Shown here: positions 14,101-31,091 of the stretch, piece by piece | Numbering within the stretch: position 1 is the stretch's first letter | How the letters are laid out: every line of letters begins with the position of its first letter | Assembly (NCBI GenBank): GCA_012103475.1 | Contig: WLWS01000002.1 | Location: forward strand, 618,081-682,080 | Direction: 5' to 3' | DNA: 64,000 bases | Source: Gammaproteobacteria bacterium | GTDB lineage: Bacteria > Pseudomonadota > Gammaproteobacteria > Eutrophobiales > Eutrophobiaceae | Program-made: the position numbers and the translations under genes | Notes under the pieces: model-generated | Told to the model about the DNA's origin: nothing | Databases searched by the model: none | Seen by the model: the letters and a program-made list of their open reading frames with translations, nothing else

Positions 14101-14376
14101 GTGAATACTTTTCTTAATCCAGCTGAGCCTGAAAAATTCGAAATTGAACTGGCGCGTTCAACAGATTCCGAAAAACAAAGCCAGATTAAACGACTAGAAC
14201 AATTTAAAGATAAACATTCTGAATCATCTGTATCTGCGTTAGGTAAACTGCGTCAGGCAGCCATAAGTAATGATAATATTTTTGACGAATTAATGAACGC
14301 AGTACGCTGTTGCAGTCTGGGACAGATCACAGATTTGTTTTTTGAAATAGGCGGACAATATCGCCGAAATATGTGA
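11104..14376 (+). CDS. icmF: Fused isobutyryl-CoA mutase IcmF (B12-binding domain, MeaB-like G-protein, mutase catalytic domain)
   Basis: 1090 aa. N-terminal B12 domain ([10 protein letters not shown]), central P-loop GTGGAGKSS with INKFDRKG, and a C-terminal methylmalonyl-CoA-mutase-like barrel. Length and domain order match IcmF. Confidence 0.9.
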
Positions 14377-14391: not shown

Positions 14392-15576
14392 TTATTTTAC
14401 CAGCGAACCGAGATCGGCGAAGGCAGCAATAATCTTCTCTATTTGCTCGTCTGTGTGAGCAGCACTAACACTGCACCTGACCAGGCATTTTTTTCCAGGC
14501 GCTGCAGGAGGAAATACAAGGTTCACATAAACCCCGTGTTCCAGCAGGCCACGCCAGAAAGCAAGAGCTTGTTCTTTGGTATCCAGCATTACAGCAACAA
14601 CTGTGCTGATTTCAGGTCCTAGTTCATAATTCAGTTCGCTCAAACCCTCATACAGTTTTTGAGCATTGTTCCATAATTTCTTGCGTAGATGCTTTCCATC
14701 TCTAAGTATAGGCAGAGCCGCTCGCGTCGATGCAATTACCGAGGGTGAGGGGGATGCTGTAAAGACATAGGGTCTGCTGGCATAGCGTAGAAAATCAAGT
14801 TCAGGATGATTACTTGCACAATATCCACCTATGCTACCAAGACTTTTACTAAAGGTCCCAACCACGAAATCCACTTCATTCAGAACCCCACATTCTTCTA
14901 TGAGTCCCTGACCAGTCTCACCAAGCACACCCAACGAATGAGCCTCGTCAACCACAAGCAAACTGGAATATTTTTTCCTTACCTCTATTATCTCTTTTAA
15001 CGGAGCTCGATCACCGAGCATACTGTAAATTCCTTCAATAATGATGAGGGCATTGTTGGCGCGCTCGCCAAGGCGGGCAAGTCTTTTATCAAGATCTTCC
15101 GCGTTATTGTGGCGAAAACGGACAACATCCGCACCGCTTAGTTTACAACCGTCATAGATACTCGCGTGACAGTCAGAATCAATAACGATAACATCCCCAG
15201 CCTGCGTCAAACCTGAAATTACTGCGAGGTTAGCCTGATAACCTGTGGTAAATACAATGGCAGAACGCATCTGGTAAAACTCGGCCAGTTCTTTTTCAAG
15301 AGCCCGGTGTCCTGCGAAACTTCCGTTAGCCATTCGTGAGCCAGTGGTTCCCGTTCCCTGCTCATCAATAGCTTTGTGGGCAGCCTGCAGACATTCTGCA
15401 TTAAAAGTTAACCCTAGATAATTATTGGTACCGGCAAGTATGATTCGTCGCCCATCAATGCGAGCTTCTGTAGGAGAGTAAACTTCTTCTATGGGTGTGC
15501 CAAATGGATCAAAGCCGACTGATAACAACGCCTCTCTATCACTTGCCAGTGAGGAAAACTTATCGAAAAGGCTCAT
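14392..15576 (-). CDS. PLP-dependent alpha-oxoamine synthase, serine-palmitoyltransferase-like
   Basis: 394 aa. PLP-lysine region GTFSKSLGSIGGY and DEAHSLGVLGETGQG resemble bacterial SPT (GTFSKS.G..GG, DEAHS.G) more than BioF or Kbl. ATGA overlap with the upstream ACP gene. Confidence 0.85.
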   Translation of the reverse strand: MSLFDKFSSLASDREALLSVGFDPFGTPIEEVYSPTEARIDGRRIILAGTNNYLGLTFNAECLQAAHKAIDEQGTGTTGSRMANGSFAGHRALEKELAEFYQMRSAIVFTTGYQANLAVISGLTQAGDVIVIDSDCHASIYDGCKLSGADVVRFRHNNAEDLDKRLARLGERANNALIIIEGIYSMLGDRAPLKEIIEVRKKYSSLLVVDEAHSLGVLGETGQGLIEECGVLNEVDFVVGTFSKSLGSIGGYCASNHPELDFLRYASRPYVFTASPSPSVIASTRAALPILRDGKHLRKKLWNNAQKLYEGLSELNYELGPEISTVVAVMLDTKEQALAFWRGLLEHGVYVNLVFPPAAPGKKCLVRCSVSAAHTDEQIEKIIAAFADLGSLVK

Positions 15577-15827
15577 TCTGCTTTTGGTCCGAGTTCATGA
15601 ATTCGTTTGGCCATATCTGCGACTGTGCGGACATCAGCTAGCACATTCATAGGTATAGAAATATCAAATTCATCTTCAACTTCGAGCAGAAGATCCAATA
15701 CCTTAAAAGAGTCAAGGCCGAGACCATCAACCAGCTCGGTTGACTCATCAAATTCGGCATTGAGCTCGGCGACAGTTTCAAGTTGCTTGTTTAAGCGTCG
15801 AAGAACTTCATCATAACTTGCAGACAT
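15573..15827 (-). CDS. Dedicated acyl carrier protein
   Basis: 84 aa, acidic, with phosphopantetheine site LGLDSFKVLDLL. Translationally coupled to the SPT-like gene. Confidence 0.85.
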   Translation of the reverse strand: MSASYDEVLRRLNKQLETVAELNAEFDESTELVDGLGLDSFKVLDLLLEVEDEFDISIPMNVLADVRTVADMAKRIHELGPKAE

Positions 15828-15843
15828 ACAGTATTTTTCTTTT

Positions 15844-16761
15844 CTATAATTGCAATAAATCAGGTGTATTCATGGCATCCGCTAATGTTATTGTGGGCGA
15901 CCAGCCCAGTGTGTTTGTCAGTGGGTGATTGTCACACACCCAGTTTAAATGAGTAATTTCCCTGACTTTACCCGGAGTCAGCATCGGTGAGTAACCGAGC
16001 AGTCTGGACATCTTTAAGTTAATTTTCGCGAATACCTCTAACAGTGGAACAGGAATAGGAATTCTGACCACTGATTTCCCCCAGACCTGATTTGTTAATT
16101 GAATCAGGGTCTCCCAATTATAACCATTCAGACTTCCATCATCCAATTCATAAATTCCTCCTGGGAAAGATTTCTGTTCGAGCCACATTCTAATAGCCAC
16201 GACTAAATCATCTATATGCAGCAAACTGAATTGCGATTGCGTATCCGGGGCAGGCAAAAAACCAGCTTTTAGTGATTTCAGTAAAGGTTTTATTTCTTTA
16301 TCCCCGGGACCATATATGGCAGTCGGCCGAAAAATTGTGGTCAAAACATTATTCTTTCGGGTAATCAATTCCGCCTCTGCCAGTCTTTTGCTTTTTGCAT
16401 ACCAGGAAAGTTGTGGCTCTCTTGCCGCGAGTGAAGATATGTGCAGAAGACGAATACGGGTGTTCTTAGATTGACAGGCGTTTAACAAATTAATACTGCC
16501 TGTGTTGTTGATTGAAACGAATTCCTTCAGTGAACTACCACGTACCGCCCCGGCACAATGAATGACGGTATCGACATTTTCTACGAGAGCATTTAATTGG
16601 GGTAAAGAGTGGAGGTCTCCGACTATCCAGTGAAGATTTTCTGTATCTTGCTGTTGTTTTCTACTAAGGGCTTTTACCCGAAATCCATGCTGAAGTAGGT
16701 CAGCGAGAATGGTTTTGCCTATGAATCCCGTGGCTCCGGTAAGTGCCACATATCCGGGCAT
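15844..16761 (-). CDS. NAD(P)-dependent epimerase/dehydratase-family reductase (extended SDR; CerR-like candidate keto-reductase)
   Basis: 305 aa with an N-terminal Rossmann motif TGATGFIGK. It sits between the FAAL and ACP genes. Confidence 0.8.
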   Translation of the reverse strand: MPGYVALTGATGFIGKTILADLLQHGFRVKALSRKQQQDTENLHWIVGDLHSLPQLNALVENVDTVIHCAGAVRGSSLKEFVSINNTGSINLLNACQSKNTRIRLLHISSLAAREPQLSWYAKSKRLAEAELITRKNNVLTTIFRPTAIYGPGDKEIKPLLKSLKAGFLPAPDTQSQFSLLHIDDLVVAIRMWLEQKSFPGGIYELDDGSLNGYNWETLIQLTNQVWGKSVVRIPIPVPLLEVFAKINLKMSRLLGYSPMLTPGKVREITHLNWVCDNHPLTNTLGWSPTITLADAMNTPDLLQL

Positions 16762-16765
16762 GTGC

Positions 16766-18523
16766 TCAGGAACTAACCAAGCTCAGCTTGTGGTTTGCTT
16801 CCTGATTCCAGTCCGCTCTTTCCATAAAGCCCTTTCGTGCGGCTACCCGTGAGAGCTTACCTGAGGATGTTCTTGGCAGTGTATGTTGCTTAACGAGTTC
16901 GACAACACAGTGTATACCAAAGCTTTCATAAACAAGTCTCTGCAATATGGAAATCAACGATTGTCTTTCAGAGGTTTTTGAAATTCTGCACTCGACGACC
17001 AGAACGACAGTTTGTTCTTCTTCTGTATCTTCTATTCCAAAAGCAGAGGCATCGCCCATTCGAATCTCGGGTTGCTGTTCTGCAAGTTCTTCAAGATCCT
17101 GAGCTCTGATATTGCGTCCATTAACGATAATTACGTCTTTTCGGCGTCCGCTTAAATAGAGATTTTCTTTGAAGATGTAGCCCAGATCACCAGTATCCAG
17201 CCATCCGTCTGCGCAAAGTACGCTATCTGTGGCTTCCTGATTGTTGAGATATCCTTCCATCAGACTCGGCCCACGCATCAGCACTCGTCCAATACGTAGA
17301 TCAGGTTGCAGTTCACCTGCATCGTTAACAATTTTGATTTCATGTTCAGGAAGCGCTTTACCGCAATTAACAATAGAGTTAATTTTTCTATTGTCAGATT
17401 GCACTCGTACAGCAACGCCTCGTTCTGCCAGAGCAAGTGCATCAATTACCATGACATCAAGACCTTCGCCAAGCGGAGAGAACGAGGCTGCAAGTGATGC
17501 CTCCGCAAGACCATAGCAAGGCAAAAAGGCCTTATCACTAAAATCTGCTGGTTTCAGGACAGAAGCAAAGTTATCAAGAATGCTGGGGCGAATCATTTCA
17601 GCACCAACACCGGCGACACGCCAACAACTAAGATCCAATTCGGCAAAGTCAGACTCTCTAACACGACGAGCACACAGTTCGTAGCCAAATGGCGGGCTGA
17701 AAGCGATGGTACATCGATTACGACTGATTAACCTGAGCCACTGCAAGGGTCGGATCGCGAAATCTCGTGTACGGATATAATCGACGGTCAACTGCGATAC
17801 GATTGGCCCTAAAACGAAGCCAACCAGACCCATATCGTGATAGAAGGGCAACCATGAAGCACATCTATCCCCGTCTTGCACTTCCAGGCCGCTACGAACA
17901 ATACCCTGCAAGTTACTCATAATAGCCCGTTCGCTGATAACTACACCTTGCGGGAATCGGGTACTACCAGAGGTAAACTGTAAATAGGCAGGCTCGTCAG
18001 TGGAGTTCACAGTAAACTCGACGTCCGCTTTTTCGAGTTCTTCTAATTGTCTTGCAGTACCAACCCATTTGATGTGATCTACATCTGCAGCAGCTTCCTG
18101 AAGAAAACCCTCGAATTCTTCCGGTGCGATTGCAATTGATGCTTCACCGCCGCGAAGTAAGCCGGTTAATTGTTGTACATAAATTTTATGACTGCCTAAA
18201 TTGACCGGAACAGGCATCGCGTATGGTAATAAGCCTGCGTAGCGGCAGGCAAAAAACAATACAATAAAATCGGCTTCTGTATCTGCAATTAAGGCCACAC
18301 GTTCGCCTTTTGTAAGACCTAATTTTAAAAGTCTTTGTGCAGAATCTTGAGCCCTTTGCTGAAGTTTTTTATAGGTGAGTACGTCTCTAAGCTTTCCCCG
18401 TGCATCAAAAAAATTGCAACCGGTTACACCTGAGGCCGCGTAATCTAAAGCTTCAGTGAGCGTATCGAAATCTGCTAATCGCCTCGGCAGAGTATTTATA
18501 GTTTTTGTTACGTCTTCAATCAC
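16766..18523 (-). CDS. Fatty acyl-AMP ligase / acyl-ACP synthetase
   Basis: 585 aa with FTSGSTRFPQGVVISE (a FAAL-type variant of the AMP-binding motif), GWLDTGDLG and a GTG start. First gene of the four-gene operon. Confidence 0.85.
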   Translation of the reverse strand: MIEDVTKTINTLPRRLADFDTLTEALDYAASGVTGCNFFDARGKLRDVLTYKKLQQRAQDSAQRLLKLGLTKGERVALIADTEADFIVLFFACRYAGLLPYAMPVPVNLGSHKIYVQQLTGLLRGGEASIAIAPEEFEGFLQEAAADVDHIKWVGTARQLEELEKADVEFTVNSTDEPAYLQFTSGSTRFPQGVVISERAIMSNLQGIVRSGLEVQDGDRCASWLPFYHDMGLVGFVLGPIVSQLTVDYIRTRDFAIRPLQWLRLISRNRCTIAFSPPFGYELCARRVRESDFAELDLSCWRVAGVGAEMIRPSILDNFASVLKPADFSDKAFLPCYGLAEASLAASFSPLGEGLDVMVIDALALAERGVAVRVQSDNRKINSIVNCGKALPEHEIKIVNDAGELQPDLRIGRVLMRGPSLMEGYLNNQEATDSVLCADGWLDTGDLGYIFKENLYLSGRRKDVIIVNGRNIRAQDLEELAEQQPEIRMGDASAFGIEDTEEEQTVVLVVECRISKTSERQSLISILQRLVYESFGIHCVVELVKQHTLPRTSSGKLSRVAARKGFMERADWNQEANHKLSLVSS

Positions 18524-18752
18524 GGCCTTAATAACTCCGGACCAGATAAGAGTTCAAAATAGTGTGTATTCCTAATCCACATGAAACCCTTAGACCCAGT
18601 CTATTCTATAAATTTAAATTATCCTTCGCTTGAAAAATCCGCTGACCACAGGCAGTGGTCGAGCTCGCTTTCCCCCCCGGGAGGCGATCGCGACGCATCC
18701 TACACAATATCCAGCAAAAATGCATCAAAATCATGAAAATACCTGTTTTTCG

Positions 18753-19214
18753 TCATTTCCAGTTTGCAGGCAAAAAATCAGTAATCTTTTGATTCATTGC
18801 CTCACTTGTCTCATTTTTGCAGGCAAGGTCCGGAGGACCCGGCCAGGCTTTGTCTTCAAACTCAACCCCTTCAAAAACTTTTTTGTCTGCGTACCTCGGG
18901 ATAACATGAAAATGGACATCCGGATCGACCATCATTAGCATCAAGTAGTTCAATTTGTCGTAGTCGAATGTCTTTTTCAAACAAGTTTCAATATCAACCG
19001 TTACCTGTCCAAGTTCAGCAAAGCTGGCTGCACTTAAATCAGAGAAGGCTTTTACAGGCTCCAAAGCCGCTAAAACCAAGGCACCCAGAGTCGCTTGTTG
19101 AGGTCTTAACATGACAAGCCAGTGCTGATAGTGGTAAATACAGCTATCTGGCGCACCAAACTTCAACATTGTTGCGTTCAATGCTTGCGTGTCAAGATTA
19201 AGATTATCTGCCAT
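18753..19214 (-). CDS. HIT-family nucleotide hydrolase/transferase
   Basis: 153 aa. The histidine-triad region reads DVHFHVIPR: the first His is replaced by Asp, and the nucleophile-position His is retained. Confidence 0.75.
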   Translation of the reverse strand: MADNLNLDTQALNATMLKFGAPDSCIYHYQHWLVMLRPQQATLGALVLAALEPVKAFSDLSAASFAELGQVTVDIETCLKKTFDYDKLNYLMLMMVDPDVHFHVIPRYADKKVFEGVEFEDKAWPGPPDLACKNETSEAMNQKITDFLPANWK

Positions 19215-19454
19215 CTATATGAATAATATAATAAAAAAAATGGATTGCACTCAAATATTTTAAACACCTTTTAGCCTGCATTGCGGCGGAAACTTCATCC
19301 GTTCATTTGTCTTGAACCCGATTACCCTGGAACTGTGCTAACGTCGCTATTGTTCAGCGAGCCTGACATCGAGTCAGGGTTGGATAATATCTTTGTGGTA
19401 AAGTGTGATGCTTCGTCGGTAATATTGATAAATATAATAAGAACAAGGACTTAA

Positions 19455-20306
19455 GTGAATAGTAAAATGAACACTGGGGTTGACGAACAGAAATTTGTAG
19501 CCATCGTATTGGCGGGCGATCGTAGTAATGCTGACCCGGTTGCAGCTCATTCCGGGACAAGTTGTAAGGCGGTGGCCGATATATACGGAAAACCGATGGT
19601 GACTCGAGTGCTCGATGCTCTCCAGGCAAGTGGCAGAGTTAAATCGATAATTCTGTGCGGTCCAGCTCAGACTGGGCTGGACGAGTGCCCCGAGTTACTC
19701 AATCGTATAGAAACAGACGGTATTCAATGGCTTCGGAATTCGGAATCCCCGAGTCGCAGTGTCGAAACGGCGCTCGAGCTTGTCGATGAGTCAGAACCGG
19801 TTTTTCTCACGACTGCCGATCATGCTTTGTTGTCGGCTGATATTGTCAGGTATTTCTTAAGTGAAGCTCTTGATAATCAAGTGGATTTTAACGTCGGGCT
19901 GGTTGATTACTCTACAGTACAGAGCGCCTACCCGGAGGTAAAACGTACTGTCATCAAGCTTAAAGAAAAAGGAGTTTGCGGTTGTAACCTGTTTGCCATA
20001 ATGACTCTTGAGGGACGGAAACTAGTCTCGTTCTGGCGCAATGTGGAACAATCTCGTAAAAAGCCCGCAAAAATGCTTGCAGGCGTGCTGGGTGTAGGTG
20101 GTGTCTTGTCTTATCTGTTGCATAGACTGACTATTGAAGGTGCGCTTGAAAAAGTCTCGAGTAGACTGGGTGTCAAGGTAAAGCCCGTGATTCTGCCCTT
20201 TGCCCGGGCCGGAATTGATGTTGATACCGTCAAAGACAAACTTCTGATAGAAAAAATACTCGCTAATGACTCAGTGACAGTTTCAAGTGAAAAACCTGCT
20301 AACTAG
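19455..20306 (+). CDS. MobA-like (NTP_transf_3-type) nucleotidyltransferase with a C-terminal extension
   Basis: 283 aa. FVAIVLAGDRS...GKPMV pattern. AAGGA lies 5 nt upstream of the GTG at 19455; an alternative ATG is at 19467. Confidence 0.65.
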   Translation: MNSKMNTGVDEQKFVAIVLAGDRSNADPVAAHSGTSCKAVADIYGKPMVTRVLDALQASGRVKSIILCGPAQTGLDECPELLNRIETDGIQWLRNSESPSRSVETALELVDESEPVFLTTADHALLSADIVRYFLSEALDNQVDFNVGLVDYSTVQSAYPEVKRTVIKLKEKGVCGCNLFAIMTLEGRKLVSFWRNVEQSRKKPAKMLAGVLGVGGVLSYLLHRLTIEGALEKVSSRLGVKVKPVILPFARAGIDVDTVKDKLLIEKILANDSVTVSSEKPAN

Positions 20307-21040
20307 CTAATATTTGAAGGGGCGAGAATTTCCTGAGCGGATTCCAAATCATGGATGAAGTCAATTTCTGCCCAGCGATGCCCGGATATTGAGCAAGACG
20401 TGACTTTTCCATCTCGTGCCATAGCATCGACAACTGACAGAAACCAGGACTTTAAGCCTGAGGGTTTACGCATAGCATTTTCGACCGAATTTCTAAATTG
20501 GCGTGGGCCGTCACCACGGAAATAGAGCATGCCGATCGATTCCGCGTGAGTTTGCTCTGGACTGAGGATTTTGCTGACCCCTTTGACTTGCCTGTCTTCT
20601 AATGTGACTTTCATATCATCTTCATCGTACTTTTCCTTGAAATCTATCGTCAGGGTTACCGGGGCAGACTCTGATTTTAAAACATGTTCCAATAAAGATG
20701 TTTCATACACGGTGTCGCCATTAATTAGGAGAAAATCCTCATTCATCTCCTGGCGAGCAAGCCAGCAACTTGCCAGATTGTCTGAAACATTGAAGAAAGG
20801 GTTAAAAACAAATCCTATTTGAGGTTTATCCGCATAGTTTGAATCGAGTAAGTTCTCGACTTGTTCACTATGAAATCCGGTAATAATGCTGATTTCTGTA
20901 ACATTACAGGCAAGAAGCGCATCCAATTGCCACTGCAGCACTGATTTGCCTGCAATTTCCAACATGCATTTCGGACAGTTTTCGGTCAGAGGTAAAAGCC
21001 TGCGCCCTTGCCCTGCGCTAAGTATTATCGCTTTAGTCAT
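20303..21040 (-). CDS. Sugar/alcohol-phosphate nucleotidyltransferase (LicC/IPCT-like cytidylyltransferase fold)
   Basis: 245 aa. N-terminal AIILSAGQGRRLLPLT...PKCML signature. Its 3' end overlaps the convergent gene by 4 nt. Confidence 0.8.
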   Translation of the reverse strand: MTKAIILSAGQGRRLLPLTENCPKCMLEIAGKSVLQWQLDALLACNVTEISIITGFHSEQVENLLDSNYADKPQIGFVFNPFFNVSDNLASCWLARQEMNEDFLLINGDTVYETSLLEHVLKSESAPVTLTIDFKEKYDEDDMKVTLEDRQVKGVSKILSPEQTHAESIGMLYFRGDGPRQFRNSVENAMRKPSGLKSWFLSVVDAMARDGKVTSCSISGHRWAEIDFIHDLESAQEILAPSNIS

Positions 21041-21170
21041 AGTCAGGCTTTATCGGGTGATTCATACTCATAATTTTGAAAAGATAACTTGCTGAATTTC
21101 AGCTGCGTATAATACATGCTGATAATTATTATACCATTCACAGCGGAGCTGAATTTACAGACTAAGGTAA

Positions 21171-22244
21171 ATGACCAAGATAGAACGTTACATATTCCTT
21201 GAGGTACTTAAGCCTCTTGCCGCAGTCCTAGGAATTCTGGTTGGATTATTTGCCTGTTTTAGCAGCGCTCGCTATCTGGCTGAAGCAATAACGGAAACTC
21301 TTGGTTTGGCGCTTATGCTCAAGCTGGTGTTTTTGAAAACAGTCATTGCACTTGAAGTTCTGGTTCCGGTGGCGCTCTATGTCTCAATTATTATCGGTCT
21401 TGGACGTATGCATCGTGATCAGGAAATAATTGCCATGCGTGCAGCTGGCATTCGTGGCACCCGGATAATCCGGGCTATCCTCTGGGTCGCGATTCCTGTA
21501 GGACTAATTGTTGGCTTATTGTCCGTGATAGGCAGGCCCCTGGCTTATGCCGATAGTTATTTACTGGACGCCAGAGCCAATGCGGAATTAAATACGGATA
21601 GATTCCAGGCCGGTCGTTTCTACGGAAATGAGGACAGCGGCAGAGTAGTCTACATTAACAAAAAGAACGAATCTTCAGGGCAGATGAGTGAGATATTTCA
21701 TTACATTGACAAGCACGATGCGAAGGAGATTATCGTTTCAACTCGTGCTACCCAACAAGCTGCGCAAGACGGGCTTCGCAATGAACTTCATCTCTTTGAT
21801 GGCACCATCCACAGGTTGATGTACGGAGAAGAAAAGGATGAAGTGATTACTTTTGAAAAACTGGTTTTGTATATCGACAATGCCGAAGAGGATATTGGTT
21901 ATAAAAGAAAAGCCGCCGCAACCGTCGACTTGATCCATTCGGAAGAAGCCAATGATGTGGCGGAATTGCAATGGCGTCTGTCAAGGCCCTTAGCTACGCT
22001 CTTACTAGCTCTGATAGCTGTGCCACTAAGCAAATCTTCTCCTCGACAGGGCCGGAACGAGAAAATATTCACCGCAGCGATGATATTTGCTCTCTATTAC
22101 AATATAAGCGGGCTTGCTCGCACCTGGGTGGAGCAGGGAGTAGTAGGGAGTTTTCCGGGAATTTGGTGGCTGCAAGTAGTACTTGTTGTTCTTGTCGCGA
22201 TAATGTTACTGCCTGAATTCAGAACTGGGAGACGTGTCCCATGA
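21171..22244 (+). CDS. lptF: LPS export ABC permease LptF
   Basis: 357 aa. MTKIERYIFLEVLKP... N-terminus and YjgP/YjgQ-type topology (3 TM, periplasmic domain, 3 TM). ATGA coupling to lptG. Confidence 0.85.
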   Translation: MTKIERYIFLEVLKPLAAVLGILVGLFACFSSARYLAEAITETLGLALMLKLVFLKTVIALEVLVPVALYVSIIIGLGRMHRDQEIIAMRAAGIRGTRIIRAILWVAIPVGLIVGLLSVIGRPLAYADSYLLDARANAELNTDRFQAGRFYGNEDSGRVVYINKKNESSGQMSEIFHYIDKHDAKEIIVSTRATQQAAQDGLRNELHLFDGTIHRLMYGEEKDEVITFEKLVLYIDNAEEDIGYKRKAAATVDLIHSEEANDVAELQWRLSRPLATLLLALIAVPLSKSSPRQGRNEKIFTAAMIFALYYNISGLARTWVEQGVVGSFPGIWWLQVVLVVLVAIMLLPEFRTGRRVP

Positions 22245-23305
22245 CTCTCCTGGAAAATTATATTGTCCGCCAAATTGGAGCAGGGCTCGCCATATCTGCA
22301 GCGGTTTTAATACCTTTGTTCAGTTTTCTTGACCTTATTGAACAGCTCGATGATGTCGGAGAAGGCTTCTATCGAACTAGAGATGCCTTTATTTATGTGA
22401 TCTACCTTCTCCCAAGACGATTTATTGAATTGGCGCCTTTTATTGCATTATTGGGAACCGTGATCGGTCTTGGAAGGTTGGCTGTTAATCTGGAGTTAAT
22501 TACCATGCGTGCGGCTGGTCTGTCACCCATGCGAATTAGTCTGGTTGTGCTCAAAGTGGGTTTTTTCCTACTCATTTTATTGACTGTGCTGGAACAATAT
22601 GTCGCACCAAAATACCAGCAAAAAGCGATATCTCATCGTGCTGAAGCACTGGCGCAAAGTGCAGAGTTAGGAAGTGATCTCGGCACCTGGACTCGCGATA
22701 AGAGTCAGGTTTTACGAATTGGAGAGAGTGCGCCGGGAAGTCTGATGCGTGATATTGAGATAATGACCTTTGATCAAGATGGATCTTTGAGGGAACACCT
22801 AAATGCGGAATACGCTGAAATAGTTACCGCAAGTGAATGGGAGCTCTCAAACGTCACTCGCAGAAAATTTTCCAAAAGAAGTCTCGAGACCAGCCATTTT
22901 GAGAATATTCTCTGGAGACCTTTTCTTAATTCTGAGCAGATGGCGACTTTAAACAGACCAGCTGAAAGTTTGTCACCGGTGGAGCTATATCAATACGTTA
23001 GCTATTTGAAAAAAACCGGACAGAAGTCCGATGCTTATGAACTGGCTCTTTGGCGTAAATTCGGCGGCGGACTGGTCACCATTGCCATGCTCTTACTTTC
23101 TGTACCCTTCGTATTCGGTTCGGTGCGAGGTGGCATTGCTAACAGACTGGTCCTGGCAGGAATTACCGGGATTTGCGTTTATTTGCTTGACCAGATTGCA
23201 GCAAACGTTGGCTTACTACTGGATCTTAGCTTTCCTCTTGTTGCCCTTGCGCCAGGATTGATCCTGATCTGGATAGCGGTGGCGTGGCTACAACGTATCG
23301 CCTAG
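22241..23305 (+). CDS. lptG: LPS export ABC permease LptG
   Basis: 354 aa. LENYIVRQI..., LELITMRAAGLSPMRI, and the same topology as LptF. Confidence 0.85.
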   Translation: MTLLENYIVRQIGAGLAISAAVLIPLFSFLDLIEQLDDVGEGFYRTRDAFIYVIYLLPRRFIELAPFIALLGTVIGLGRLAVNLELITMRAAGLSPMRISLVVLKVGFFLLILLTVLEQYVAPKYQQKAISHRAEALAQSAELGSDLGTWTRDKSQVLRIGESAPGSLMRDIEIMTFDQDGSLREHLNAEYAEIVTASEWELSNVTRRKFSKRSLETSHFENILWRPFLNSEQMATLNRPAESLSPVELYQYVSYLKKTGQKSDAYELALWRKFGGGLVTIAMLLLSVPFVFGSVRGGIANRLVLAGITGICVYLLDQIAANVGLLLDLSFPLVALAPGLILIWIAVAWLQRIA

Positions 23306-23327
23306 TCCGGGCCGGTGTTCCTGCTTG

Positions 23328-24320
23328 TCAGGCGGCCGGAAGATTAAGTTCAAATTCTTTAAGCACAGAATATGATTCTGCCTCGATTTCCAATCGGCGC
23401 GACTGAACTCGCAGGCTCCACCCTTCAGGAATTCTTTCAATTTCATATAGATTATAACCGGATCGTTTACTCGTTGAAGTTGAGAGAACTGAGGCAGAAG
23501 CAGCCCCAATCACAGGTATTTTCAATTTATCACTCTGCAGAAAATCCCAAACCGGATAGTGGCCATGTCCATGAACAATCAACTCCGCGCCATGGGAGAC
23601 AATTGATTGTCGAAATTCATGAGCATCTCTGAGTCTTTTTCTAAACTTATTACTAGTCTGCAAAGGACCGTGATGAAGCATCACAATTCTGAACAGGCCC
23701 ATTTTTTTTGTTTTCACCAGTAATTGCTCAAGGTCCTGAATTTGTTTTTGGCCCAACTCACCGGTAGCAAAAAAAGGCGAAGTTGGCAGTGCTGTGGACA
23801 GACCAATTATTGCCAGCGGTCCACGTTGTCTAAAGCTGGGGAAAAGCGGGGGCTTATGATTGTCAGAATTGACACTGTCACTTGCTATATAGTCTGACCA
23901 CAGGCCAAAAGTCCGGCTTATATCATCTTTTGTGTAGTAATCGTGATTTCCGGGAATAAGCGAGATATTTTCCGCTGTGCCAAGATCCGACAACCAGCTT
24001 CTGACCTGTCGACATTCTGCAGCAGTTCCGATGTGAGTAAGATCTCCACTGATGAGCAAATGCCCAAGCTCATTGGAACTGAGATCGTTAAGTAACTTGT
24101 CTAGAATATCCAGACGTTGAATATGTCGGCGCGAAAACCTCCAGGACAAATAACCCAGTATTCGTTTGCTCAGTAACTGCTGCCAGCTTACACCGCTCAG
24201 ATCACTTAAATGCGGATCAGAAATATGGGCTATACGGACGGGGCCGACGCCATTATTAGCAGATGGGGGTAAAAATTTCATCATGCCTGTATCATATCGT
24301 CCGAATTTACCAATAGCCAC
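23328..24320 (-). CDS. Calcineurin-like metallophosphoesterase
   Basis: 330 aa. Motifs ISDPH, GDLTH, GNHDY, MLHH and GHGH. The track start at 24320 is GTG; an ATG at 24284 (MMKFLPP) is a plausible alternative. Confidence 0.8.
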   Translation of the reverse strand: MAIGKFGRYDTGMMKFLPPSANNGVGPVRIAHISDPHLSDLSGVSWQQLLSKRILGYLSWRFSRRHIQRLDILDKLLNDLSSNELGHLLISGDLTHIGTAAECRQVRSWLSDLGTAENISLIPGNHDYYTKDDISRTFGLWSDYIASDSVNSDNHKPPLFPSFRQRGPLAIIGLSTALPTSPFFATGELGQKQIQDLEQLLVKTKKMGLFRIVMLHHGPLQTSNKFRKRLRDAHEFRQSIVSHGAELIVHGHGHYPVWDFLQSDKLKIPVIGAASASVLSTSTSKRSGYNLYEIERIPEGWSLRVQSRRLEIEAESYSVLKEFELNLPAA

Positions 24321-24352
24321 AATGTGAGCCGAGAAGAAAGTTAGAAGCTGCT

Positions 24353-25561
24353 ATGAATACATTATATGTTTACCTGCTGAAAGATACGGAGACGGTTTTG
24401 TGGGGTTTGAGTGGGAAATCCCGACTCGTTCGCATGCTCGAATCAAAAGCAGGGATGGTTCTTGTAGAGTCCCTGGATGAGATTCCGGATGAATCCTGTG
24501 TTCTATTGTTGCTCAGTGATTACCTGTATGACCCGCGTATTTTGAGCAATTTGATGTCTGGTTCTGAGCAACTTGCCCTTAAGGCAAGTACTGAAGAAAA
24601 CATTGTGGCGGCAAAGGTTGTTGTAATTAATGCCCGCCAGGCCAGTCTGGAGTTGTCAGGAAAATCGGAATTCAGTTTGCTTTCTGAATTACCGTCTGTA
24701 CTGCCTGAAGAACTTGTTAAAGCATATGATGCGAAGTTACTTAAATACGATCCCCCAGAAATATTAGCAATCAATGAACAAAACAAAACTCAGCTCGAAA
24801 ATGAATTATTCAATGGTTCTTACAAGGGTATCACCGATATCGTTACCAAATGGCTTTGGCCCTTACCGGCAAAGGCAGCTGTCAAATTCTGTGTCAAACA
24901 GGGTCTTTCTGCAAATCAGGTAACATTATTCAGTTTTGTTTTGGCGCTTCTGGCAGGTTTCGCTTTTGCTTATGGATTTTTCATTTCCGGCCTGATGATG
25001 GGTTGGTTAATGACTTTCCTGGATACTGTGGATGGTAAATTGGCTCGAGTGACTGTCAGTTCAAGCAAAATCGGCGATATACTTGATCATGGACTCGACC
25101 TCGTTCATCCACCACTATGGTATCTGGCCTGGGCCCTTGGAATAGCAGGTGTCTGGATGTCACCGACTCTGGTGATGCCTATGTTCTGGATTATTCTACT
25201 GGCCTACATTGGTGGTCGTTTTTGCGAAGGCGCTTTTGATCTCTGGATAGCACCTTTTCGTTTATTCCTCTGGCAACCATTTGATTCATACAATCGTCTG
25301 ATCACAGCCCGACGCAACCCTAACATGATTTTATTAACAGCCTCATTATTTTTTGACCGCCCGGATCTTGGACTTTACTCAGTTGCAGCCTGGCACGTTT
25401 TCTCCACAATAATTCTTTTCATCAGAGTTATTATGGCTATGAAAGAGAAAAAACGGGTGGGTGAACTGGAAACATGGCTCAACACTATTGACCCGGTAAA
25501 TGATCTCGGCCGTCTTGAAGTTCGCCTGTTTACGCGGCTTTCCAAATCCAGTCTGGTGTAA
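24353..25561 (+). CDS. CDP-alcohol phosphatidyltransferase with an N-terminal extension of about 150 aa
   Basis: 402 aa. The family motif D-G-x2-A-R-x8-G-x3-D-x3-D is seen as DTVDGKLARVTVSSSKIGDILDHGLDLVHP, with multiple TM helices after residue 170. Confidence 0.8.
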   Translation: MNTLYVYLLKDTETVLWGLSGKSRLVRMLESKAGMVLVESLDEIPDESCVLLLLSDYLYDPRILSNLMSGSEQLALKASTEENIVAAKVVVINARQASLELSGKSEFSLLSELPSVLPEELVKAYDAKLLKYDPPEILAINEQNKTQLENELFNGSYKGITDIVTKWLWPLPAKAAVKFCVKQGLSANQVTLFSFVLALLAGFAFAYGFFISGLMMGWLMTFLDTVDGKLARVTVSSSKIGDILDHGLDLVHPPLWYLAWALGIAGVWMSPTLVMPMFWIILLAYIGGRFCEGAFDLWIAPFRLFLWQPFDSYNRLITARRNPNMILLTASLFFDRPDLGLYSVAAWHVFSTIILFIRVIMAMKEKKRVGELETWLNTIDPVNDLGRLEVRLFTRLSKSSLV

Positions 25562-25566
25562 ATAGT

Positions 25567-26556
25567 ATGACTGAGTATACGCAACAGCGATTCCGTAAAA
25601 TCGGAATTCTGTGCAATCCGAAAGCGGGCAGGGTCAAAAACAAAACCGGAGAGATAAGAGCCCAATCAGAATCGCTTCCCGGTGTCGCTTATCGCGAAGC
25701 GCGAGTCCCTGAAGAATTTGCAATAGTGATTAAGGAATTCGTTGCGTTAGAAATTGATTTGTTTGTAATTATTGCCGGTGACGGTACTATTCACGCGGTA
25801 CTGACACAAATTTTCAACGCGCACCTTTTTCAAACCACCCCTGTCTTGTCATTTGTTCCTGCGGGAACAACGAATATGACAGCACTCGATAGTAAGATGA
25901 ATGGCAAGCCCGAATTAGTTTTGGCCAGATTAATTCAACAGTTAAAAGAAGGTAGTCAGCCTCAGATAAAAACGCAGAAACTAGTCAAAGTGCAATGTGG
26001 TAAAACAGAAAGCCAGTACGGCTTTTTCCTCGGGATCGGTGTAATCGCAGAGGCGGTAGCTTATTTTCAGAACAATATTAAAAAAACCGGGTTGACAGGC
26101 GAGGGGGCTTCGGCAATTGTTTTTATTCGTTTTCTGTTAATATTGGTTTTCAATCGACGTCAAATAAACCAATCAATAATCGAGCTTCACTCGGATGATT
26201 TCCAATTCAATCAAGGTCCCTGTCTTGTCTTGCTCATTAGTTCTTTACACAGACTTTTGTTCGGAATGAGACCTTATTGGGGGTCTGAAACTGGGGCACT
26301 TCATATGACCCTTGTCAGTGAACCACCACGAAGATTATGGCGTTCGTTGTTTGCCTTATTGAATGGCAAAGGACATCAACTATCTGAAGAAGATGGCTAT
26401 TCGAGTCACAATGTGAACAAAGTGTCTATTAAGATGAAAGGTAAATACGTTATTGATGGAGAGATATATTCGGTATCACCCGACGCAATGGGGATTGAAG
26501 TAAGTGCCGATACCTCTGTGTCAATTTTACAGCCTGAGGAGCTCCTCCGTGCCTGA
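25567..26556 (+). CDS. Lipid kinase of the DAGK catalytic / LCB5 family (diacylglycerol, sphingosine or ceramide kinase-like)
   Basis: 329 aa. Motifs ILCNPKAGR, VIIAGDGTIHAVL and PAGTTNMTA. Confidence 0.8.
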   Translation: MTEYTQQRFRKIGILCNPKAGRVKNKTGEIRAQSESLPGVAYREARVPEEFAIVIKEFVALEIDLFVIIAGDGTIHAVLTQIFNAHLFQTTPVLSFVPAGTTNMTALDSKMNGKPELVLARLIQQLKEGSQPQIKTQKLVKVQCGKTESQYGFFLGIGVIAEAVAYFQNNIKKTGLTGEGASAIVFIRFLLILVFNRRQINQSIIELHSDDFQFNQGPCLVLLISSLHRLLFGMRPYWGSETGALHMTLVSEPPRRLWRSLFALLNGKGHQLSEEDGYSSHNVNKVSIKMKGKYVIDGEIYSVSPDAMGIEVSADTSVSILQPEELLRA

Positions 26557-27511
26557 TGCTGTCAATAACCTGGCCCCACCTGCGGCTCTGGTTGCAGAAA
26601 AAGCATCTGAATGTGCGCGAGTCGTACCTGGTGGCTTTCATGTTTTTGTCGGAGCTCTGGAGAAACATTTCGGAGAATCGCTGCAAGCGGTGCTTTTGTA
26701 TGGTTCCTGTCTCCATAGCTATGATCTTAAAGACAGTGTGGTCGACCTCTATGTGTTGGTTGACGATTATGACAAAGCCTACACTAGCTCATTATTCTCA
26801 TACTTGAACAAGATTGTTCCACCAAACGTGTTTTATCTTGAATTGGAACATGAAGGAATGACCCTGCGTTGTAAGTATGGAGTAATAACACTGAGTGATT
26901 TCGAAAAGGGTGCATCTTCATGGTTTCACTCTTATATCTGGGGCAGATTTTCACAACCGGTCCGATTACTTTATTTTCGAAATGAAGACGCAAGATTAAA
27001 AGTGTTAGAGACACTGGCTCAGGCTACTATTACGTTTTTGCGCGCCACTGTGCCAGCTCTTGGAAGAAGTGTCGTAGATACTGAAACAATCTGGAGTCGC
27101 GGTCTCGCGCTTTCATATAATGCAGAGCTTCGTCCTGAGCAAAAAAACAGGGCGCGGCAACTAACACATCTGAACATGGGTGATTATATTCGTCTTACTG
27201 CTTATTCACAGGAAATGATTGAACTGCTTGAAGCTTTACCACATGACAGATACAACTGTACAGCAAATGAAAAAGAGTGCCTTCGGGCATTACGTAAATG
27301 GCGTTTTCGAAGATGGCAGGGCAGAGTGTTGTCTGTTATGCGCTTAACTAAAGCAGTATTTACTTTCAGAGACTGTGTCGACTATGCCGCGTGGAAAATA
27401 GAAAGACATACAGGAATAAAAATTGAGCTTACTACCCGACTACGTAATCATCCGATCTTATTCGGTGGGAAAGTGCTGTGGCAGTTGATAAGGCAAGGAG
27501 TAATGCACTGA
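26504..27511 (+). CDS. Tam41/Mmp37-like nucleotidyltransferase (phosphatidate cytidylyltransferase-like)
   Basis: By eye, its blocks align with yeast Tam41 blocks. LLYGSC matches GYGSG, VDLYVLVDD matches IDIILGV, NVFYLE matches GVYFNPF, RCKYGVITLSDF matches VKYGVVSMETL, SYIWGRFSQPVRLL matches FYLAGRLQKPVKIL, and LSYNAELRPE matches LSYAGDIRY. The start is uncertain: GTG at 26504 gives a 53-nt overlap, while GTG at 26549 gives an 8-nt overlap with the kinase stop. Confidence 0.65.
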   Translation: MPIPLCQFYSLRSSSVPDAVNNLAPPAALVAEKASECARVVPGGFHVFVGALEKHFGESLQAVLLYGSCLHSYDLKDSVVDLYVLVDDYDKAYTSSLFSYLNKIVPPNVFYLELEHEGMTLRCKYGVITLSDFEKGASSWFHSYIWGRFSQPVRLLYFRNEDARLKVLETLAQATITFLRATVPALGRSVVDTETIWSRGLALSYNAELRPEQKNRARQLTHLNMGDYIRLTAYSQEMIELLEALPHDRYNCTANEKECLRALRKWRFRRWQGRVLSVMRLTKAVFTFRDCVDYAAWKIERHTGIKIELTTRLRNHPILFGGKVLWQLIRQGVMH

Positions 27512-27532
27512 TGAACTTTCAATTATTTCATT

Positions 27533-28285
27533 ATGCAGACTGAAGCACCAAATAAGAAAAAACGCAAGCACCGCACGAGTGTGGCTGCTGGTTTGTGGCT
27601 GATTAAGCGAATAGAAAAATTTCTAATGCGCTATTCCGAGTTTCAGGATCAACCCTTTCTCGACGTGCAGAAGTTTAAATGGCATGAGTCATTAGAAACG
27701 GACTGGAAAAAAATAAGACTGGAACTGGACAACATCCTCCAGCACCCGGAAACAATTCCAAACTTTCAGGATATTTCTAAAGATCAGACAAATCTGACTA
27801 AGGACAATCACTGGAAATCATTCTTTCTATTCGGTTATGGCTATAAGTTTGAGCCAAATTGCGAATTGTGTCCGGAAACGACAAAACTGGTTGAATCAAT
27901 ACCCGGAATGTTCACGGCTTTTTTTTCAATACTATCCCCAGGCAAACATATACCCAGACATCGGGGGCCGTACAAAGGTTTATTGCGTGGTCACCTGGGA
28001 CTCATTGTCCCCGAACCAAAAGAAGAATGCTGGATACAGGTGGGAGAGGAAAAGGCGAACTGGCAGGAAGGTAAGTGTTTGGTTTTTGATGACACCTATA
28101 AACATCAGGTCCAGAACAATACAAATGGAACGCGAGTTGTCTTGTTTCTTGATGTTCTCAGACCGCTTCGTTTCCCGGGATCTGTGGTCAACAAACTGAT
28201 CCTTCAATTAATCAGAATGTCACCTTTTATTCAGGATGCCAGACGAAATCAAATTGCCTGGGAGAAGCGACTAGGTGATGATTGA
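27533..28285 (+). CDS. Fe(II)/2-oxoglutarate aspartyl/asparaginyl beta-hydroxylase family protein (LpxO/OlsC-like lipid acyl hydroxylase)
   Basis: 250 aa. Motifs ILSPGKHIPRHRGPYKGLLRGHLGLIVP, W.EGKCLVFDDTYKH and TRVVLFLD. Last gene of the plus-strand lipid operon. Confidence 0.8.
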   Translation: MQTEAPNKKKRKHRTSVAAGLWLIKRIEKFLMRYSEFQDQPFLDVQKFKWHESLETDWKKIRLELDNILQHPETIPNFQDISKDQTNLTKDNHWKSFFLFGYGYKFEPNCELCPETTKLVESIPGMFTAFFSILSPGKHIPRHRGPYKGLLRGHLGLIVPEPKEECWIQVGEEKANWQEGKCLVFDDTYKHQVQNNTNGTRVVLFLDVLRPLRFPGSVVNKLILQLIRMSPFIQDARRNQIAWEKRLGDD

Positions 28286-28293: not shown

Positions 28294-28506
28294 TTATGGA
28301 ATGACCAGTTTCACGATTGTGAATATAGTGAGATGAAAAACAATCACTAGAAAAATCCCCATAAATATATACGGTTTTATTCCTTTTTTTTCGATGTATG
28401 CGTTATCACGCTCGAAGTTTCTTTTGTTTTGAACGCCTACGAAAGAGGCCAGCATGCTCCATAATATCTGTAAAGCATTCGGGTCTTTGCTATTTTCATT
28501 TTCCAT
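28294..28506 (-). CDS. Small membrane protein (DUF2970-like)
   Basis: 70 aa. FVGVQNKRNFERD followed by one TM helix. The family assignment is from memory only. Confidence 0.45.
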   Translation of the reverse strand: MENENSKDPNALQILWSMLASFVGVQNKRNFERDNAYIEKKGIKPYIFMGIFLVIVFHLTIFTIVKLVIP

Positions 28507-28597
28507 CTTTAAATATATATCGTCGGTAAAAGTACACTATCGATTATTCCTGATGTCTTGTAAAGCCTAACCAATATGTTTGTAAGTCTCCCATAAG

Positions 28598-28611
28598 TTG
28601 ATCGAAATCAT
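28598..28611. promoter_or_regulatory. FNR/Dnr-like box with one mismatch (TTGAT-CGAA-ATCAT) upstream of the cytochrome c' gene
   Basis: Read directly. The box centre is about 64 bp upstream of the ATG at 28669. Confidence 0.4.
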
Positions 28612-28668
28612 GTTTTTTTTAATTTATATACGTACTCTGATAATTCAATAACAAACCGGAAGCACAAG

Positions 28669-29118
28669 ATGTTTTCTCATTATGGGTTTTTGCGATTATT
28701 CTTTTACATATTATTGTTGGTTTTTTGCCTGAATACAGGCGCCGAAACCCAGCCTTCTGCAAAAAAAACTGTGATGCAATGGATGATGCAGGAAATCGTG
28801 CCACAAAGTACATTGCTGTGGGGTGCTGATAATCCTGAATCGGACGAAGAGTGGAGCCAGCTTTTGTCGGCGGCTGAAAAAATAATCAGGGCTGCGAAAG
28901 CCATGCAAAAAAATGCCTTGAGTGATCAAGGAACGGACTGGTCGAAGCAGTCCGACTGGCAAACTTATAACTCTGAAATGAAAGCAGCCGCAGATCACGC
29001 CAAAGAGGCAATTTTAGAGAAAAATCTGGACAAACTATTTAAAGCGGGAGATGACTTGTATCCTCCTTGTGAAGGCTGTCATTTGCAATTTAATCCTGCG
29101 GTTTCCGAGGATAGCTAG
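28669..29118 (+). CDS. Class II c-type cytochrome (cytochrome c'-like), periplasmic
   Basis: 149 aa. Signal peptide, a predicted four-helix-type sequence, and a single CEGCH haem site near the C-terminus, as in cytochromes c'/c556. Confidence 0.7.
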   Translation: MFSHYGFLRLFFYILLLVFCLNTGAETQPSAKKTVMQWMMQEIVPQSTLLWGADNPESDEEWSQLLSAAEKIIRAAKAMQKNALSDQGTDWSKQSDWQTYNSEMKAAADHAKEAILEKNLDKLFKAGDDLYPPCEGCHLQFNPAVSEDS

Positions 29119-30282: not shown

Positions 30283-31091
30283 TAGTCACCTTTGAACTTC
30301 GGTTTCTCTTTGCTAACGAAAGCCTGATAGGCTAGTTTAAAGTCTTCGGTCTGCATGCATATGGCCTGAGCCTGAGCTTCCGATTCGATAGCCTGTTCAA
30401 TCGACATGTCCCATTCCTGTCGCAGCATGGTTTTTGTCATTGAATGGGCGAAAGTGGGGCCGGTGGCAAGCCTGTTGGCACATTCCATCGCTTCTTTCAG
30501 CAAGTCATCGACTGCGCAAAGCTTATTATAGAAACCCCACTTCAGGCCTTCATCTGCGCTCATACTCCTGCCTGTGAAGAGTAAGTCTGCAGCACGCCCC
30601 TGACCGATAATGCGAGGTAAGATTGCGCAGGCACCCATGTCGCATCCAGCAAGACCAACGCGGGTAAACAGAAAAGCCGTTTTGGCATTTTCTGTCGCAT
30701 AACGCATATCGCTGGCCATCGCGATAATGGCTCCGGCACCGACACATACACCATCAATTGCTGAGATGACAACTTGTGGTGCATTGATCATTGCTTTCAC
30801 AAGATCGCCTGTCATTCGGGTAAACTCAAGGAGTCCTTTCATGTCTTTTTTGGTTAGCGCTCCGATAATTTCATGAACATCACCGCCGGAGCAGAAGTTA
30901 CCTCCTTCACCACTGAAAATGACAGCATTGACATCTTCTGCATAAACCAGATTTCTGAATAGATCCCTGAGTTCAGCATAAGAATCAAAAGTCAGCGGAT
31001 TTTTTCTTTCAGGTCGGTTAAGAGTGATGAGTGCAACCTTATTTTCACATTGCCAGTTAAAATGCTGAGCAGAATAGTCTTGAAATTTCAT
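30282..31091 (-). CDS. Enoyl-CoA hydratase/isomerase (crotonase) family protein
   Basis: 269 aa. Motifs FCSGGDV and GVCVGAGA. Start-stop overlaps with both neighbouring genes. Confidence 0.9.

Follow-up and report, generated by a model that had tools for sequence, protein, structure and literature searches.

We analyzed a stretch of 64,000 nucleotides (referred to as the window) from the genome of a gammaproteobacterium (assembly GCA_012103475.1, contig WLWS01000002.1, positions 618,081 to 682,080) and focused on an island of 14 genes at positions 14392 to 28285, which carries predicted functions for the synthesis and export of a sphingolipid. All 14 open reading frames (ORFs) were reproduced from the ORF list and the window at full length, without a frameshift or stop, and every family call was supported by profile searches against Pfam and NCBIfam. 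The initial annotation of this DNA had described 14 consecutive lipid or envelope genes with nothing unrelated between them, and both the ORFs and the profile matches agree with this description. The catalytic motifs of Spt, CerR, CpgA, CpgD and the metallophosphoesterase are intact and the GC content shows no break across the island. A promoter and terminator scan gave no enrichment over shuffled sequences.

In both gene content and gene order, the island corresponds to CC_1152-CC_1165, a part of the locus CC_1152-CC_1168 (ccna_01210-01226) of Caulobacter crescentus, which encodes ceramide synthesis, the ceramide phosphoglycerate (CPG)/CPG2 head group and export (PMC11324152, PMC12275187, PMC9393093, bioRxiv 10.64898/2026.04.12.717747). 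There, the ceramide genes are aasR, cerR, acpR, spt and the ceramide synthase gene bCerS, with a HIT-family protein encoded by CC_1157. The head-group genes comprise the kinase cpgB, the Tam41-like cpgC, the phosphotransferase cpgA, the cytidylyltransferase cpgD, CC_1153 and CC_1158, and second copies of LptF, LptG and LptC are needed for the export of anionic sphingolipids. For 13 of the 14 window genes the same protein families are found in Caulobacter, the functional modules match, and the families agree with the Caulobacter counterparts as described in S1 Text of PMC11324152.

The leftmost part of the island is the predicted ceramide-backbone operon, with all four genes on the minus strand. 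Its gene spt (14392..15576, CC_1162 equivalent) encodes a putative serine palmitoyltransferase (SPT), which scored 190 bits for Aminotran_1_2 and 626 bits for the NCBIfam equivalog NF047599 (cutoff 500). The closest solved structure is the SPT of Sphingomonas wittichii (2x8u, 449 bits). By their PDB bit scores, the Sphingomonas SPTs (412-449) are clearly ahead of 2-amino-3-ketobutyrate CoA ligase (KBL, 229) and 8-amino-7-oxononanoate synthase (AONS, about 165), so that the protein is closer to characterised SPTs than to KBL or AONS, and the lysine that binds pyridoxal phosphate is present in the motif TFSK (residue 244). Adjoining spt are a dedicated acyl carrier protein (ACP), acpR (15573..15827, CC_1163 equivalent; PP-binding 42 bits, phosphopantetheine site LDS), the NAD(P)-dependent 3-oxo reductase cerR (15844..16761, CC_1164 equivalent; Epimerase 81 bits, motifs GATGFIG and YAKSK) and aasR (16766..18523, CC_1165 equivalent), a predicted acyl-ACP synthetase of the fatty acyl-AMP ligase (FAAL) family. 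The products of this operon are 57 % (Spt), 46 % (AcpR), 43 % (CerR) and 48 % (AasR) identical to those of the sphingolipid locus of E. coli. For the last gene, the initial label "FAAL" is correct at the level of the family (NF006624, 831 bits), but the role is that of the specialised acyl-ACP synthetase AasR, which charges the dedicated AcpR for Spt (Padilla-Gomez et al., PMC9386255). Experimental support for AasR, AcpR and Spt comes from Caulobacter and E. coli.

The second block contains the genes for a predicted head-group module. To compare it with an alphaproteobacterial system, we used the cluster on plasmid p1318-4 of Roseomonas marmotae, which has a Caulobacter-like gene order, as a proxy. 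Full-length identities to this cluster were 48 % for the HIT protein, 47 % for CpgD, 40 % for the nucleotidyltransferase NT3, 36 % for CpgA, 34 % for the metallophosphoesterase and 32 % for CpgC, and CpgB matched the kinase of the cluster over its full length with 26 % identity (E = 9e-27). These levels mirror the published values for Pseudomonas and Azotobacter in comparison to Caulobacter.

NT3 is a MobA/CofC-like nucleotidyltransferase (19467..20306, plus strand, CC_1153 equivalent; NTP_transf_3 53 bits). It had been called from 19455, but the real start is almost certainly the ATG at 19467, because the resulting 279-aa product is the called protein P0241. Its Caulobacter counterpart CC_1153 is required for the step from CPG to CPG2 (PMC11324152). 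On the opposite strand follows a cpgD-like gene for a COG1213 cytidylyltransferase (20303..21040, minus strand, CC_1152 equivalent; NTP_transferase 54 bits, motif GQGRR). LicC is the top PDB match of its product, and a search of the PDB found no deposited CpgD structure. The protein is probably a CTP:phosphoglycerate cytidylyltransferase producing CDP-glycerate, as the enzymology of CpgD is known from Caulobacter (PMC12275187). A role of this LicC-like transferase in MurU/AmgK peptidoglycan recycling was considered and rejected (57 bits, cutoff 250).

The genes for the kinase, the Tam41-like protein and the CDP-alcohol phosphotransferase are in one operon on the plus strand. The first of them, cpgA (24353..25561, CC_1159 equivalent), encodes a CDP-alcohol phosphotransferase with an N-terminal cytoplasmic domain (CDP-OH_P_transf 32 bits) and a complete catalytic signature, D224xxDGxxAR...G...D...D (residues 224-249). 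It shares 46 % identity with a homologue on a Pseudomonas plasmid and 48 % with a relative from Nitrosospira, and is proposed to transfer phosphoglycerate from CDP-glycerate. The product of cpgB (25567..26556, CC_1160 equivalent; DAGK_cat 48 bits, motif AGDGT) is probably a ceramide kinase, an activity for which the enzymology of CpgB was described in Caulobacter (10.1101/2023.05.01.538943). For the Tam41-like gene cpgC (26549..27511, CC_1161 equivalent), which had been listed from 26504, the GTG at 26549 is the likely start because the resulting 320 aa equal the length of the protein in relatives. Its score for Tam41_Mmp37 is only slightly above the cutoff (27 bits versus 24). Nevertheless, a profile built from eight Tam41-like homologues matched Tam41 (6ig2/6ig4) alone in the whole PDB (E = 4e-5), so that we regard the call as weak but specific. 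CpgC probably turns ceramide-1-phosphate into CPG, presumably through nucleotide activation. Both the SPT-like and the Tam41-like assignments of the initial annotation were thus upheld by the profile searches.

A different head group, inositol or another alcohol phosphate, would be conceivable if the LicC/IPCT-like transferase delivered CDP-inositol and the CDP-alcohol phosphotransferase moved it. This idea draws on the top NCBIfam matches of CpgA, archaetidylinositol-phosphate and phosphatidylinositol-phosphate synthases, and on a match of the cytidylyltransferase to the IPCT/DIPPS model, but all of these matches are weak and their scores are far under the cutoffs (49 vs 180 and 64 vs 580). 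Moreover, the island has no gene for an inositol-phosphate synthase, the cytidylyltransferase shares 47 % identity with the enzyme of the Caulobacter-type Roseomonas cluster, and the set of cpgA-D, CC_1153 and CC_1158 is complete. We consider an inositol-type head group highly improbable.

Between the nucleotidyltransferase genes and the cpgA operon, the island encodes a pair of permeases on the plus strand, LptF (21171..22244; LptF_LptG 224 bits) and LptG (22241..23305; LptF_LptG 229 bits), as functional equivalents of LptF2 (CC_1156) and LptG2 (CC_1155). The initial annotation regarded the island as wrapped around lptFG. This is incorrect, as the pair appears to be a component of the system, the sphingolipid exporter, and groups with accessory copies. 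In phmmer searches, the window LptF scored 409 bits against the Nitrosomonas cluster copy, 200 against the copy of the E. coli sphingolipid locus and 58-118 against canonical proteins, for which gammaproteobacterial LptF and LptG of known structure were used; the corresponding values for LptG were 413, 207 and 119-161. Against pairs that are demonstrably accessory, namely the second pair of E. coli beside spt and a pair on an IncP plasmid, LptF and LptG reached 200-220 bits, and LptF is 37 % identical to the copy on this Pseudomonas plasmid. The linkage of the LptF_LptG pair to the sphingolipid locus is kept in 81 of 87 loci. Based on these comparisons, we assign the window pair to a group of cluster-associated permeases from Beta- and Gammaproteobacteria, some of which are clearly accessory. 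This is in line with the report that lptF2/lptG2 occur in many alpha- and gammaproteobacterial sphingolipid loci (Uchendu et al., 2026, bioRxiv 10.64898/2026.04.12.717747). An interaction of LptF2, LptG2 and LptB was shown experimentally in another organism than this one.

The pair could instead represent the sole housekeeping permeases for lipopolysaccharide (LPS), with one pair serving both LPS and the sphingolipid. Such a double use has been proposed for Sphingomonas, Bacteroidetes and Myxococcus. LptF and LptG of the window do exceed the respective NCBIfam equivalog cutoffs, but these models do not discriminate, because the accessory second copies of E. coli receive the same plain names from PGAP (11384-13530 of our E. 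coli locus, NZ_CP019455.1). No other LptF_LptG gene was detected among the window ORFs scanned, and in S. wittichii the cluster copies are the only lptFG. In contrast, the window pair is much closer to the accessory copies of E. coli and the IncP plasmid and to the cluster copies of Nitrosomonadaceae (51-58 % identity to the latter) than to any canonical gammaproteobacterial LptF or LptG, and a housekeeping helicase is just 51-60 % identical over the same taxonomic distances. A double role as the only permeases of the cell is therefore doubtful in our view. For genome annotation it is useful to know that PGAP and NCBIfam label such cluster permeases as ordinary LptF and LptG.

The remaining three genes have accessory or less well-defined roles. 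The metallophosphoesterase gene (23328..24320, minus strand; Metallophos 47 bits, motifs DPH and GNHD) and cpgA are divergently oriented, which is also the arrangement in the alphaproteobacterial clusters, and the product matches the protein encoded at the equivalent site in the Roseomonas cluster with E = 1e-52. In total 304 relatives were found, and the best 80 of these 304 all come from metagenome-assembled genomes (MAGs) of uncultured Gammaproteobacteria, among them Thiogranum, Thiohalobacter, Ectothiorhodospiraceae, Competibacteraceae, Halieaceae and Cellvibrionales. The metallophosphoesterase CC_1158 was reported to be lacking in the beta- and gammaproteobacterial examples (Olea-Ozuna et al., 2024, PMC11324152). 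Contrary to this, the window carries a predicted enzyme of the CC_1158 type.

The HIT-family protein (18753..19214, minus strand, CC_1157 equivalent) scored just over the Pfam cutoff (HIT, 22.6 bits) and has the motif DVHFHVIPR. In comparison to HVHVHVLPR of Fhit, we take the first histidine of the triad to be replaced and the two nearest to Pro-Arg to be kept. It shares the motif DPDVHFHVIPRY with its Roseomonas homologue, its gene has the same position in P. luteola, and at 48 % identity between the gamma- and alphaproteobacterial clusters it is more conserved than CpgA, CpgB and CpgC. The protein is possibly a hydrolase or transferase acting on a nucleotide intermediate; in the literature, CC_1157 is regarded as probably unrelated to the pathway. 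Like the metallophosphoesterase gene, the HIT gene is conserved between Alpha- and Gammaproteobacteria.

The cpg operon ends with a gene for an Fe(II)/2-oxoglutarate hydroxylase (27533..28285, plus strand; Asp_Arg_Hydrox 185 bits), which had initially been called "LpxO-type". The domain assignment holds, but the protein reaches the curated cutoffs neither of the LpxO model (150 vs 500 bits) nor of the OlsC model (262 vs 450). LpxO, the lipid A 2-hydroxylase, and OlsC, the ornithine-lipid 2-hydroxylase, belong to the same Asp_Arg_Hydrox dioxygenase fold family, and the substrates of all three proteins, known or predicted, are acyl chains of lipids in the outer membrane. The 120 best homologues of the window protein are 63-90 % identical to it, a conservation far above that of the neighbouring enzymes. 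In every context examined the gene is part of a cpg or sphingolipid cluster and shows no association with lpx or ols. In six MAG loci (L002, L005, L014, L169, L170 and L171 in our numbering) it is located immediately behind the Tam41-like gene, and on the Pseudomonas plasmid immediately behind cpgA. Taken together, the hydroxylase appears to be a cluster-specific subfamily that belongs to the pathway, and its operon position alone suggests that it acts on the acyl chain of the sphingolipid. Our literature search for a link of LpxO/OlsC-type hydroxylases to bacterial sphingolipid or ceramide clusters returned nothing relevant. In Caulobacter, the N-acyl chain is hydroxylated by the unlinked DesA-type enzyme CC_0202 (PMC11324152), whereas the window appends an Asp_Arg_Hydrox dioxygenase to the cluster.

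For the analysis of synteny, we retrieved 80 genome loci with the bCerS-like proteins of relatives as query and placed the island proteins by tblastn. Linkage of the genes for bCerS, NT3, LptF, LptG, CpgA, CpgB and CpgC was observed in 60-80 of 87 loci, which come from Nitrosomonadaceae and gammaproteobacterial MAGs, and about 80 genomes of Nitrosomonadaceae and uncultured Gammaproteobacteria possess the core of the cluster. Several gammaproteobacterial MAGs with differing flanks have the full layout, in which spt-acp-cerR-aasR-HIT, CpgD and the metallophosphoesterase are present as well. The adjacency of the genes is not a matter of chance, because the same order is found in many genomes with different flanks, and the neighbourhood conservation expected from the initial annotation could thus be confirmed. 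The island proteins share 77-90 % identity with those of the closest relative, GCA_025491055.1. This is at or above the level of the DNA (about 80 %) and fits continued purifying selection.

The host itself was placed with a housekeeping DEAD-box helicase. The Gammaproteobacteria MAG Dive96_bin10.122 (L008), which possesses the island together with bCerS, shares 70 % identity in this protein, and Ectothiorhodospiraceae, Chromatiales, Methylococcaceae and others share 51-60 %. Accordingly, the host is a genuine, uncultured member of the Gammaproteobacteria. The island has diverged from its nearest relatives about as much as housekeeping genes have, in agreement with vertical inheritance in this lineage after an older transfer.

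For two Gammaproteobacteria, Pseudomonas luteola and Azotobacter vinelandii, Olea-Ozuna et al. (2024, PMC11324152, Fig 7, S2E and S2F tables) have already listed contiguous orthologous clusters. The gene order of FOB45_16280-16340 in P. luteola and Avin_44240-44370 in A. vinelandii is as in the window: spt, acp, cerR, aasR, HIT, (bCerS), CC_1153, cpgD, lptF, lptG, cpgA, cpgB and cpgC. In these two clusters bCerS is present, CC_1158 was reported as lacking and no hydroxylase was reported, whereas the window shows the reverse on all three points. The initial annotation knew of no description of the route in Gammaproteobacteria, but it has been described there and corresponds to the CPG/CPG2 pathway of Caulobacter. 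Compared to the latter organism, the window lacks equivalents of bCerS, LptC2, the flippase and CC_1167, and the last three gaps have already been noted for Beta- and Gammaproteobacteria. The locus of the E. coli B/UTI89 type (yghO, aasR, cerR, acpR, spt, lptG, lptF; PMC9386255) shares the backbone genes (43-57 % identity) and a second lptFG beside spt. In contrast to the window, it has no cpg head-group genes and keeps bCerS in the form of yghO.

The most conspicuous feature of the window is the missing ceramide synthase, which the initial annotation had correctly noted. Searches with bCerS homologues (tblastn and BLASTP) resulted in no match anywhere in the 64-kb window and none in the gap between the HIT gene and NT3 (19215..19466), where no bCerS remnant is left and relatives carry a bCerS of about 1.16 kb. 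A GNAT-like bCerS of 380-393 aa occupies this slot in six of six relatives inspected (L002, L006, L007, L008, L170, L172). These proteins are 52.5 % identical to YghO, the bCerS homologue of E. coli (PMC9386255), and 44 % to the Roseomonas homologue. In the closest relative, the final 144 residues of bCerS run directly into NT3. DNA homology between the window and this relative begins only at 19483, and the roughly 250 bp upstream are unrelated intergenic DNA. Two further searches concern the same gene. An unannotated ORF of 430 aa at 35898-37190 was considered as a cryptic bCerS and ruled out, and a degenerate DNA pattern for the bCerS motif KEVEMSW matched just 28 of 332 loci, so that the pattern was too strict. 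Independent of the window, the bCerS homologue on the Roseomonas marmotae plasmid p1318-4 (7497-8648 of locus L334, 44 % identical to the MAG bCerS) carries the RefSeq name "dATP pyrophosphohydrolase", which is probably a misannotation.

The absence of bCerS raises the question whether the island is a decaying remnant, in which the loss of this gene cut the pathway, no ceramide-based lipid is formed and the remaining genes are heading for loss. The precision of the absence speaks for such a scenario, as the closest relative, at about 80 % DNA identity, retains bCerS directly upstream of NT3 and no other copy is found in 64 kb. In addition, a second segment of 3.5 kb beside the cluster is missing relative to four relatives: at 28569-28755 the window has 187 bp, where L169 (the closest relative), L002, L005 and L007 have 3.46 kb with a Peripla_BP_2 gene and a TonB-dependent receptor. 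On the other hand, all 14 genes have retained their full length and their catalytic motifs and contain neither a frameshift nor a stop, and the protein identity to the closest relative is at or above the DNA identity. A relocation of bCerS also has precedent, since the gene and spt are far apart in N. eutropha, G. oxydans, Z. mobilis and S. wittichii (PMC9386255). Decay of the island is accordingly unlikely.

A further, quite improbable scenario assumes that the lineage truly lost bCerS and that the other 13 genes are under selection. In this case, an unrelated N-acyltransferase could take over, or the kinase, the Tam41-like protein and the CDP-transferase might use the free sphingoid base as substrate and make a non-acylated, lyso-type phosphoglycerate sphingolipid, with the hydroxylase replacing the DesA-type enzyme. 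If this were true, the Fe(II)/2-oxoglutarate dioxygenase would be a previously unrecognised sphingolipid hydroxylase.

Weighing this evidence, the island is very probably a gammaproteobacterial member of the known Caulobacter-type system for the synthesis and export of anionic phosphosphingolipids. The initial annotation read the island as a set of sphingolipid genes that includes a module for a phospho-head group and whose product is destined for the outer membrane. This functional reading was essentially right, and its alternative of a related amino-lipid is not needed. We also lean towards the view that the genome still makes the final lipid, though with lower confidence, because bCerS must come from elsewhere. 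Several points weigh against our interpretation. First, bCerS is essential for ceramide in Caulobacter and has been cleanly removed from its slot, and the second deletion beside the cluster makes decay possible. Secondly, the orthology to the Caulobacter locus is derived from the Roseomonas proxy, published identity tables and synteny. Between the window LptF and the alphaproteobacterial cluster copy the identity is only 24 % (52 bits), and the beta/gamma pair may therefore be an independent recruitment. Finally, we found no chemical demonstration of such a lipid in any beta- or gammaproteobacterium in the literature, and how CpgA, CpgC, CC_1153 and CC_1158 work is unproven even for the Caulobacter proteins, although the genetic requirements for these four have been established.

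Based on the homology to the Caulobacter enzymes, we propose a pathway of seven steps. All of them except the sixth have been shown genetically or biochemically only in Caulobacter, and some also in E. coli, with the kinase CpgB and the cytidylyltransferase CpgD demonstrated in vitro in Caulobacter; the sixth step is suggested by the conserved operon position. In the first step, AasR would charge AcpR with a fatty acid and Spt would join acyl-AcpR and serine to 3-oxosphinganine. Secondly, bCerS, which would be encoded elsewhere in the genome or be replaced, would N-acylate 3-oxosphinganine, and CerR would reduce the product to dihydroceramide. Phosphorylation by CpgB would then yield ceramide-1-phosphate (step 3), which the Tam41-like CpgC would turn into ceramide phosphoglycerate, probably via a nucleotide-activated intermediate (step 4). 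In step 5, CpgD would provide CDP-glycerate and CpgA would use it to add a second phosphoglycerate, assisted by the CofC-like nucleotidyltransferase and the metallophosphoesterase. The Fe(II)/2-oxoglutarate hydroxylase would hydroxylate the acyl chain (step 6), and the cluster LptF/LptG, powered by the housekeeping LptB, would extract the lipid from the inner membrane for transfer to the outer membrane (step 7).

In Caulobacter, CPG2 is an anionic sphingolipid that is able to stand in for LPS and determines polymyxin sensitivity. According to our survey, the CPG2 system is widespread in uncultured environmental Gammaproteobacteria and Nitrosomonadaceae, travels with its own LptFG and occurs on plasmids. 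As the route was already known in Gammaproteobacteria, what appears to be new here is a member of the system that lacks bCerS and an accessory hydroxylase that is apparently undescribed. The genome represents a natural bCerS-minus variant at this locus and does not overturn the current understanding.

Several variants of the cluster were observed in other genomes. In two gammaproteobacterial MAGs (L170, 5885-10617; L171, 5614-10888), the genes for CpgA, the Tam41-like protein and the hydroxylase are present without the DAGK kinase between them. Directly downstream, both loci have genes for CofD and a CofE-like F420 ligase, which is intriguing since NT3 of the cluster is CofC-like. The complete Cellvibrionales genome CP121321.1 (L331, 2092-18903) contains a variant with LptF, LptG, an MsbA-like ABC transporter, an Elm1-like protein and Spt, together with an enzyme of the EPSP-synthase family, a metallophosphoesterase, NT3, bCerS (48 % identical), AasR, CerR, two LpxL-like acyltransferases and an FA_hydroxylase. 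This composition suggests a different head group or acylation chemistry. On the IncP plasmid pPNP1 of Pseudomonas sp. JS425 (L333, 65.7-77.8 kb), a cpg module lies between IS5, IS6100 and a class 1 integron (sul1). It consists of a CpgD-like gene, CpgA, the hydroxylase, an ELM1/GtrOC1 glycosyltransferase, a metallophosphoesterase that is only 21 % identical to the window protein, a kinase, lptG, lptF and NT3; neither spt nor bCerS was present in the stretch examined. Homologues of CpgA were also detected on 13 Roseomonas plasmids.

The island is flanked on both sides by genes of acyl-CoA metabolism (8918-14376 and 29125-35861), which are not found beside the cluster in the relatives that were examined. 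The upstream flank encodes an acyl-CoA ligase, a MerR regulator and a fused IcmF-type mutase of 1090 aa with B12-binding, MeaB and mutase domains. In the downstream flank we found an acyl-CoA dehydrogenase, an enoyl-CoA hydratase, a MarR regulator, a short-chain dehydrogenase/reductase, a salicylyl-CoA 5-hydroxylase-like enzyme and an extradiol dioxygenase. Further away (52174-60656, minus strand), a series of co-oriented genes encodes DUF5522, DUF3604 (667 bits), HupE/UreJ, a peptidyl-prolyl isomerase, an ADP-ribosylglycohydrolase, an adenosine-deaminase-like protein and a nucleoside hydrolase. Directly after the cluster, a small protein of 70 aa with a DUF2970 domain is encoded on the minus strand (28294..28506; Pfam DUF2970 48 bits). 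The gene has the same position in L002, L005 and L007, with or without the hydroxylase, and may be a further member of the cluster.

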